Positions 15,848-15,941 of a DNA stretch of 64,000 bases are shown piece by piece (within the stretch, counting starts at the first letter, position 1; each line of letters starts with the position of its first letter). The notes below the pieces were generated by a model. It worked only from the letters and a program-made list of their open reading frames with translations, was not told where the DNA came from and did not search any database. A program made the translations under genes and the position numbers. Source of the stretch: a virus (lineage: Duplodnaviria > Caudoviricetes); the IMG/VR virus record IMGVR_UViG_3300031992_000039, positions 32,001 to 96,000 of that record. One strand, written 5' to 3'.

Positions 15848-15941
15848 TGGCGGAAGTGGCAGGGTTCGAACCTGCAAAGTGGTGACGTCAAACCACAGGG
15901 ATTTAGAATCCCCCGCCTTTAACCTATTTGGCTACACTTCC
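15848..15941 (-). tRNA. Amber suppressor tRNA (anticodon CTA), Ser-type body
   Basis: GGAAGTG/CACTTCC acceptor, G73-CCA, GGGGA-TTCTAAA-TCCCT anticodon arm, long variable arm GTGGT..ACCAC. Confidence 0.88.

Follow-up and report, generated by a model that had tools for sequence, protein, structure and literature searches.

A 64,000-nt stretch of DNA from an uncultured tailed phage (Duplodnaviria; Caudoviricetes) encodes a transfer RNA (tRNA) with anticodon CUA, apparently a suppressor of the amber stop codon UAG, in a genome that uses the standard genetic code throughout. This stretch, analysed whole and hereafter called the window, comprises bases 32001–96000 of the IMG/VR record IMGVR_UViG_3300031992_000039, a complete phage genome of 111,327 bp with a 127-bp terminal repeat. 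We refer to the phage under study as G000, to related IMG/VR phage records as G002–G036, and to loci from those records by L numbers. With a probability of roughly 0.52, we read this tRNA(CUA) as a functional amber suppressor on a tRNA-Ser body, charged by the seryl-tRNA synthetase (SerRS) of the host, in a lineage that would stand at a pre-recoding stage in which the meaning of UAG is ambiguous.

tRNA(CUA) is a real, structurally intact tRNA. It is 94 nt long, with the anticodon (cta) at tRNA position 36 (window 15906–15904, ARAGORN), the variable arm at 15896–15876, the discriminator base G73 at 15851 and an encoded CCA end at 15850–15848. It matches Rfam family RF00005 over its full length (model positions 1–71; 57.1 bits against a 29-bit cut-off; E 1e-9), and its minimum free energy fold is the cloverleaf, with a z-score of -2.7 and 0/200 shuffles as stable. 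The acceptor stem (GGAAGUG/CACUUCC) is paired at all seven positions, and the acceptor/T stem geometry is 7/5. U8 and A9 precede a D arm with a 3-bp stem (GCC/GGC), an A13.A22 mismatch and a 10-nt loop containing G18G19; the anticodon arm has five pairs and the loop UUCUAAA, with U33 and A36A37A38; the 21-nt variable region consists of five stem pairs (GUGGU/ACCAC), a loop of 8 nt and a trailing UUU; and the T arm reads GCAGG-UUCGAAC-CCUGC. A first-pass annotation of this DNA, made from its letters without database searches, had described a clean cloverleaf with anticodon CTA at 15904–15906, a long variable arm, G73 and an encoded CCA; ARAGORN, Rfam and the fold bear this description out in full.

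Three unusual tRNA classes were considered for this gene and rejected. ARAGORN labels it 'Pyl' (pyrrolysine), a label that follows from the anticodon alone. tRNA-Pyl has a short variable loop and a compact D loop, and the 21-nt variable arm and 10-nt D loop with G18G19 rule out this identity on shape; pyl genes were not searched for. The geometry of a selenocysteine tRNA (tRNA-Sec) was rejected from the structure drawn by ARAGORN, and an allo-tRNA was rejected because the geometry is 7/5 and not 8/4 or 9/3. The variable-arm loop (within 15876–15896) also contains an 8-nt perfect palindrome, UGACGUCA, which could permit loop-loop self-pairing of the tRNA.

We judged the isotype from feature tables of the tRNAs of related phages (about 147 tRNAs from ten genomes of the family) and from a signature test in cellular genomes. 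Besides the 21-nt variable arm and G73, tRNA(CUA) bears the Ser-type marks G1:C72, G2:C71, A3:U70, C11:G24, a 3-bp D stem and a GGUUnAAGGC D arm, and the tRNA-Ser(UGA) of G010 has the very same acceptor 5' strand, GGAAGUG. G73 is present in 11/11 Ser tRNAs of the relatives, whose variable regions measure 14–21 nt, and A73 in 12/13 Leu and 4/4 Tyr tRNAs of the ten genomes. According to published identity rules for SerRS and the leucyl- and tyrosyl-tRNA synthetases (LeuRS and TyrRS), G73 in place of A73 turns Leu-type bodies into Ser-type ones and TyrRS requires A73 (PMC9976931). The first acceptor pair separates the gene from glutamine tRNAs: position 1:72 is weak or mismatched in all nine Gln tRNAs of the family and in the three Gln-type tRNA(CUA)s found in G007, G008 and G036, whereas it is G1:C72 in G000.

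A 20-base signature from the 5' half of the tRNA, GGAAGTGTNGCC-N4-5-GGTTNAAGGC, was searched across the genomes of 185,579 species and hit at least 120 cellular loci. Among the matches listed, ARAGORN called 114 tRNAs, and every one was a tRNA-Ser (114/114), with anticodon UGA in 101, GGA in 11 and CGA in two. The unique cellular Ser sequences among the matches listed carry G73 in 74 of 74 cases and have variable regions of 15–19 nt; against their G15:C48, tRNA(CUA) has A15:U48, a compensated, covariant Levitt pair. The serine-type body proposed by the first-pass annotation thus draws support from G73, the variable arm, G1:C72 and the signature test, and on these sequence features we consider it probable.

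The case for the standard code comes from the complete genome. With a purpose-made codon-usage gene caller applied to G000 and its relatives (table 11, or TAG or TGA as sense), G000 yields 145 genes under table 11 that cover 86% of the genome. Calling the whole genome with TAG as sense, a check put forward in the first-pass annotation, brought no gain and no sign of recoding (coverage 0.857 under table 11, 0.845 with TAG as sense), and TGA as sense was no improvement either. Neither the gene calls nor a scan for open reading frames (ORFs) with internal TAG revealed an in-frame TAG anywhere in the 111,327 bp; the only ORFs with an internal TAG and coding signal on both sides were artefacts overlapping real genes. 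A tblastn search with all proteins of nine relatives gave 667 high-scoring segment pairs against G000 and no TAG within a conserved gene, the sole TAG in an aligned segment lying just upstream of a start codon. The earlier observation that large genes of the window lack in-frame TAG therefore extends to the complete genome, while one explanation offered with it, TAG-to-Ser suppression for genes outside the window, is excluded: the genome is complete, and no TAG awaits such decoding elsewhere in it. As G000 holds no in-frame TAG, tRNA(CUA) is not needed to make the phage's own proteins. Domain searches of G000 and its recoded relatives found no release factor, no class IIa (SerRS-type) synthetase core and no glutamyl/glutaminyl-tRNA synthetase (GlxRS) domain, so phage-encoded versions of these were rejected, and charging and termination must rely on the host. 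Pipelines that treat a suppressor tRNA with anticodon CTA (Sup-CTA) as a sign of genetic code 15 would mis-call this genome.

Stop codons in the 145 called genes are TAA in 108, TGA in 33 and TAG in four. The first-pass annotation had named only two credible TAG-ending genes, at 23132 and 57010, with a TAA 3 or 8 codons later; both genes and both distances are correct, but a third gene of the window, 62215–63840, had been missed. In this third gene, a second TAG follows after six sense codons and a TGA after 13 more. Beyond the window, the genome has a fourth TAG-ending gene. The tails translated on readthrough would be short, at 2, 7, 6 (to the second TAG, +13) and 24 codons, placing a back-up stop 3 to 25 codons past the TAG in every case, and in two of the four the TAG falls inside the overlap with the following gene. 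Homologues in relatives were found for one of the four, and its tail is not conserved. Because only 4/145 genes end in TAG and each has a back-up stop, suppression would cost the phage little. One of these genes, 23132–23560, encodes a 142-aa conserved protein in which one site has TAG in G005 and G007, Q in G003, G008, G010 and G014, and S in G000 (EITSKKF in G000, DIF*DKF and DLFQDKF in others, the asterisk marking TAG); this is a single site and not significant genome-wide.

Related phages have made the change that G000 has not. A search with the DnaE-type polymerase recovered 23 loci and a capsid profile 198 relatives, outlining an IMG/VR phage family with genomes of 100–140 kb; GenBank polymerase matches, in Bacillota phages, are only 36–37% identical. 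Twelve related records were analysed in full, together with the tRNA-array regions of 17 further phages. The twelve represent eleven distinct phages, G002 and G003 being indistinguishable in 18 core genes (zero branch length), and only G003 was used in the second of two trees. Four relatives are TAG-recoded (G005, G007, G008 and G036): their coverage rises from 0.63–0.68 to 0.83–0.87 with TAG as sense, and each has 285–397 in-frame TAG codons, concentrated in virion genes and absent from replication genes. G002/G003, G009, G010, G013, G014, G019 and G026 gain nothing from TAG as sense and share the standard code with G000. TAG columns of the recoded genomes align chiefly with Q (about 20–30%), then with E and K, and with S at background level, so that TAG stands for glutamine in all four. 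G007 and G008 have only 16–19% of their TAG sites in common, implying that TAG and Gln codons interchange quickly. At the relatives' TAG sites G000 shows no serine footprint (S at 5–10%, as in other genomes).

Trees were built by quick IQ-TREE maximum-likelihood runs on 18 and then 23 concatenated core proteins, with support from the Shimodaira–Hasegawa-like approximate likelihood ratio test (SH-aLRT) and midpoint rooting. They pair G000 with G019 (SH-aLRT 97) and unite these two with G026 and the recoded G007 and G008 in one clade (SH-aLRT 100). G036 is sister to the standard-code G009, and G005 lies elsewhere. Since recoded phages thus occupy three separate positions, the family has probably undergone TAG-to-Gln recoding on three or more occasions. 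As an observation on its range, recoding recurs within one capsid family of rumen and gut phages of about 110–140 kb (loci L036–L055, L173 and L184–L189).

The tRNA island of G000 follows a conserved three-gene block, a position common to the members examined (G007, G008, G009, G010, G014 and G026), and tRNA(CUA) heads the array in G000, G007 and G008; it comes after a tRNA-Lys in G000, and in G007 and G008 no more than about 25 nt separate it from one and the same gene end. The bodies of the tRNA(CUA)s of G000, G007, G008 and G036 are unrelated. That of G007 is class I, beginning UGGGGUA, with U1:A72 and G73; that of G008 has U1.U72, G73 and a 21-nt variable region containing CUCUGAA, a copy of the Gln(CUG) loop; and that of G036 is class I with U1.U72 and G73. 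ARAGORN found no CUA tRNA in the recoded G005 and none in the 17 further array regions, and in G026, a complete genome, the syntenic slot is practically devoid of tRNAs. Same-isotype tRNAs differ strongly between these phages, indicating that the arrays turn over fast. Of the options raised by the first-pass annotation, the phylogeny agrees best with an early stage of recoding, the clade including TAG-to-Gln phages in which a tRNA(CUA) occupies this place in the array.

Under the suppressor reading, tRNA(CUA) would be transcribed from the early or middle-strand tRNA island, probably together with tRNA-Lys(UUU), and matured by host enzymes, with its CCA already encoded. It would be charged by host SerRS, an enzyme indifferent to the anticodon that identifies its substrates by the long variable arm, G73 and acceptor pairs, and the charged tRNA would compete with release factor 1 at UAG and insert serine. 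A36A37A38 is the determinant for MiaA and the context of tRNAs that read U-starting codons. The E. coli supD (serU) and phage T4 psu1+ suppressors illustrate the principle: a tRNA-Ser body with anticodon CUA inserts serine at UAG because SerRS does not read the anticodon, and cells tolerate this. Those two, however, are laboratory-selected mutants of normal Ser tRNAs, whereas the tRNA(CUA) of G000 is a natural gene for which no sense-codon parent was identified. For the phage itself, the predicted effect is that four proteins are slightly lengthened, and the suppressor would be tolerated because TAG stops are rare. The lineage would have its suppressor already, with TAG still absent from the reading frames.

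Several observations weigh against this interpretation. TAG is strongly avoided relative to TGA as a stop in G000 (4 vs 33, p 1e-6), but standard-code relatives without a suppressor have 42 TAG and 166 TGA stops, and TAG stops are not rarer in G000 than in these (Fisher p 0.29). There is thus no footprint of active suppression, and TAG avoidance is a family trait rather than a consequence of tRNA(CUA). A serine body also contrasts with the glutamine meaning of TAG in the recoded relatives, so this tRNA cannot be the direct precursor of their suppressors. It has no counterpart in the nearest relatives, G019 (a fragment) and G026 (complete), and as no relative with this tRNA(CUA) was found, there is no conservation or covariation to attest selection. 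Finally, the variable arm is not quite that of an ordinary Ser tRNA: such tRNAs have tetra- to hexaloops and one unpaired base, against the 8-nt loop and three unpaired U of tRNA(CUA), and within the arm lies UUUGAC, which forms the core of the anticodon loop in the family's Gln(UUG) tRNAs.

That hexamer bears on the alternative that survives best, namely that tRNA(CUA) inserts glutamine, either through a host Gln enzyme that accepts CUA tRNAs or through a long arm that acts as a 'second anticodon arm' displaying a Gln anticodon, which would place it in the same class as the suppressors of G007 and G008. UUUGAC reproduces six of the seven bases of the Gln(UUG) loop CUUUGAC, a match with a chance probability of about 0.005 when the hexamer must be exact and of about 0.03 under a looser motif, and the 21-nt variable region has the same length as those of the suppressors of G008 and phAss-1, which contain CUCUGAA and have G73 (the phAss-1 tRNA(CUA)s, OQ749652.1, have U1.C72 and A1:U72). 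TAG is glutamine in 4/4 recoded members of the family; G73, G2:C71, G10 and U35 are marks shared with Gln tRNAs; and the D and T arms resemble those of the tRNA-Gln(UUG) of G007 (58/73 identical). However, in no pairing register is GUUUGAC closed off as a loop of 7 nt; the loop on the stable 5-bp stem has 8 nt. The nearest cellular tRNA-Ser has a very similar variable arm, GUGGGUUUACGCUCAC, so UUUGAC can be a heritage of Ser arms. The strong G1:C72, where 9/9 Gln tRNAs and 3/3 Gln-type suppressors have a weak or unpaired 1:72, and a 5' half whose signature occurs only in Ser tRNAs among the matches listed argue further against glutamine, and we consider it unlikely.

We hold it to be quite unlikely, too, that the gene is an accident, arising from a recent anticodon mutation of a tRNA-Ser (a single change turns CGA into CUA) or from an error of consensus or assembly in one metagenome-assembled genome. 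Such a gene would be neutral or mildly deleterious and on its way to loss. An orphan is what this would predict, and an orphan is what was found. Exact-pattern scans with the anticodon arm (anticodon left free), the 5' half, the 3' half and the variable arm gave no true match in IMG/VR, JGI metagenomes or GTDB genomes, the sole pattern match (L195) being rejected as a coding-sequence coincidence; blastn found no match in GenBank phages or E. coli genomes; and BLAST of 18 related records returned nothing, the suppressors of G007 and G008 having come up only by ARAGORN on full genomes. The absence of tRNA(CUA) from the closest relatives and of a footprint in stop-codon usage points the same way, as does the degraded state of the phage's other Ser tRNA, which leads one to expect a working Ser tRNA here. 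Against an accident, UCG is the rarest Ser codon of G000 (4.4 per 1000), and the other anticodons of the array all have U34 except Met(CAU) and Asn(GUU), which makes a Ser(CGA) ancestor unlikely and leaves two changes from UGA. The loop UUCUAAA with A36A37A38 is typical for U-starting codons, all stems are perfect, the CCA is encoded, and a tRNA(CUA) at the array head recurs in the recoded clade-mates G007 and G008.

A different kind of explanation holds that tRNA(CUA) acts on others, by misreading or too early unlocking the TAG-rich late genes of co-infecting TAG-to-Gln relatives or amber-locked mobile elements, or by extending TAG-ending host proteins in the course of a takeover of the host. 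Sensing of co-infecting phages through suppressor tRNAs has been raised by Borges et al. (10.1101/2021.08.26.457843). Recoded relatives put TAG in virion and not in replication genes, making late expression depend on suppression; genes have crossed lineages, the polymerase being 81% identical to that of G003 against a core mean of 48%; and TAG is avoided even where no suppressor is present, as expected if shared hosts often hold suppressors. Laboratory E. coli strains carrying supD, supE or supF tolerate amber suppression well, so damage to a host would be mild. Direct evidence for co-infection or a shared host is also lacking, and nothing at the locus ties tRNA(CUA) to a defence or counter-defence gene. 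We judge action on others to be improbable. Weakest, and in our view very improbable, is a relic of reversion, in which an ancestor shared with G007 and G008 was TAG-recoded and G000 returned to the standard code with its suppressor kept: the clade holds both code states, the suppressor heads the array in all bearing members, and Borges et al. left routes back to the standard code open (10.1101/2021.08.26.457843), but G019 and G026 of the same subclade and the nearest outgroups G009, G010 and G014 use the standard code, G000 has 0 in-frame TAG where recoded relatives have about 300, the body is Ser-type and not Gln-type, and at the TAG sites of G007 and G008 the residue mix of G000 is that of other standard-code genomes.

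The preferred reading, an amber suppressor in a lineage not yet recoded, follows a published model. Borges et al. proposed that stop codons are depleted in low-GC phages, that standard-code relatives of recoded phages gain a suppressor, and that in-frame stops then appear in late genes (10.1101/2021.08.26.457843). Their 'Agate' example resembles G000 in being a standard-code phage near recoded ones, with the stop already rare and a suppressor acquired; it differs in that its suppressor reads TGA, where that of G000 reads TAG. G000 departs from the model in the amino acid, a Ser-type tRNA standing beside relatives that read TAG as Gln with Gln-type tRNAs. Among phages of code 15, in which TAG is glutamine (crAss-like phages, Lak and phAss-1, for example; PMC10607447, PMC9523058, PMC11210395), about half carry a Sup-CTA (PMC11210395). 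These phages, like G007, G008 and G036, share with G000 the anticodon CUA, G73, a place in a tRNA array and the lack of a phage synthetase. Their Sup-CTA tRNAs, however, have a weak or unpaired 1:72 and a short variable loop or an arm with a Gln loop, alongside hundreds of in-frame TAG, whereas G000 has G1:C72, a Ser-type arm and no in-frame TAG.

Serine suppressors in phages also have precedents. Phages that read UAG as serine and carry a Ser-tRNA(CUA) were reported by Ivanova et al. in 2014, as summarised in PMC4695839. According to that summary they share with G000 a CUA tRNA on a serine-type body, but UAG is a sense codon for them, and their translation of UAG is said to involve a phage-encoded RF2, whereas G000 has no in-frame UAG and no release-factor gene was found in it. 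The premise of the first-pass annotation, that described TAG-recoded gut phages read TAG as Gln, holds for the recoded members of this family and is incomplete beyond it, given the UAG-to-Ser phages of that summary (PMC4695839). Bacteria and phages, rumen Clostridia being mentioned, also have allo-tRNAs, which are of Ser type but carry anticodons other than those for Ser, stop anticodons among them (Mukai et al., PMC5389517); these tRNAs are similar to the tRNA(CUA) of G000 in combining a Ser-type body with an odd anticodon, and differ in their 8/4 or 9/3 geometry from its canonical 7/5. Phage Ser-tRNA(CUA)s and suppressors in standard-code relatives are therefore already published, and what is of special interest is the combination of a standard code, a Ser-type suppressor and Gln-recoded relatives with the same slot.

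Stop-to-sense changes are usually inferred from their end states. G000 is a complete genome that matches the intermediate condition proposed for such a change: it retains very few TAG stops, carries a suppressor and has no TAG in frame, and it stands beside relatives that have completed the change. With serine probable in G000 and glutamine in its relatives, two questions become testable in one family: whether the suppressor comes first, and whether the meaning of the codon is then still open. A further idea, which we advance tentatively and with considerable doubt, is that the head of the array is a 'suppressor slot', filled before TAG gains a meaning, with the amino acid decided later. If so, gaining a suppressor would not determine which amino acid the codon ends up encoding; that might be settled by the enzymes of the host, by gene exchange with recoded relatives, or by conflict among co-infecting phages with TAG-locked late genes. 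On this view G000 would represent the ambiguous intermediate stage of a code change as it occurs in nature, and might also take part in interference between phages.

Features of the window that bear on tRNA(CUA) are collected in the table.

Features of the tRNA island and TAG-ending genes (window coordinates)
Feature	Position	Strand	Basis or remark
tRNA island, ten co-oriented tRNAs	11734-16055	(-)	ARAGORN
Degraded tRNA-Ser(UGA)	15244-15330	(-)	ARAGORN, Rfam
Spacer downstream of tRNA(CUA), GC-rich, ORF-free, ~520 nt	15331-15847	(-)	sequence
Terminator-like hairpin at spacer end	15353-15339	(-)	terminator scan
tRNA(CUA), class II, probable Ser-type body	15848-15941	(-)	ARAGORN, Rfam, fold, isotype signature test
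tRNA-Lys(UUU), directly upstream of tRNA(CUA)	15980-16055	(-)	ARAGORN; Rfam 68.4 bits
Sigma-70-like promoter candidate, TTGAAT-17-TATAAT, ahead of tRNA-Lys and tRNA(CUA)	16277-16305	(-)	site scan
TAG-ending gene	23132-23560	(-)	TAA 3 codons on; homologues in relatives stop at about the same place
TAG-ending gene	57010-57483	(-)	TAA 8 codons on
TAG-ending gene, 541 aa	62215-63840	(-)	stop overlaps start of next gene (ATGGGATTAG)

The promoter candidate, tRNA-Lys, tRNA(CUA), the 520-nt GC-rich ORF-free RNA and the hairpin could form one transcription unit. The evidence for promoter and terminator is weak, because counts of such sites in the region equal those of shuffles. No Rfam family matched the spacer at E<=1, and a theta or hepatitis delta virus (HDV)-like ribozyme, or another Rfam family, beside tRNA(CUA) was accordingly rejected. 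No related locus came up when the 289-aa gene that lies upstream of the array was used as query. On the same strand and near the island, an RNA ligase (Pfam RNA_ligase plus a PHA02142 oligonucleotide/oligosaccharide-binding (OB) fold; PHROG 968) is encoded at 4641–5867 (-), which suggests tRNA repair against host anticodon nucleases.

The neighbouring tRNA-Ser(UGA), which had looked decayed from its letters, is so by four signs. It has a G2.A71 mismatch, A73 where 11/11 Ser tRNAs of the relatives have G73, no encoded CCA, which the nine other array tRNAs possess, and the lowest Rfam score of the array (38.4 bits). It could be a gene in decay, or else a tRNA with the shape of a Ser tRNA that A73 might push towards a Leu or Tyr identity.

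To judge from sequence identities, the family's lineages have traded replication genes, even between recoded and standard-code phages. The DnaE-type polymerase of G000 (42706–45180, (+)) is 80–81% identical to those of G002/G003 and G026, against a core-genome identity to G003 of about 48%, and a topoisomerase subunit (29571–31415) is 72% identical to that of G007 and 50% to that of G008. Recent import of genes from recoded relatives was rejected, the best identity being 84% and the genes concerned lacking TAG.

Two further observations concern tRNAs of the relatives. In G036, ARAGORN also calls a UUA (ochre) tRNA (L173, 12177–12251, (-)); TAA is still the main stop of this phage and position 33 is a G, so that the call is doubtful. 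In G003 (L035), G009 (L061) and G014 (L075), isotypes that normally have short arms carry long extra arms or inserts, namely Lys(UUU) of 84 nt, Asn(GUU) of 81 nt, Ile(UAU) of 91 nt and Arg(UCG) of 97 nt, and extra arms seem to be common among the tRNAs of this phage family.

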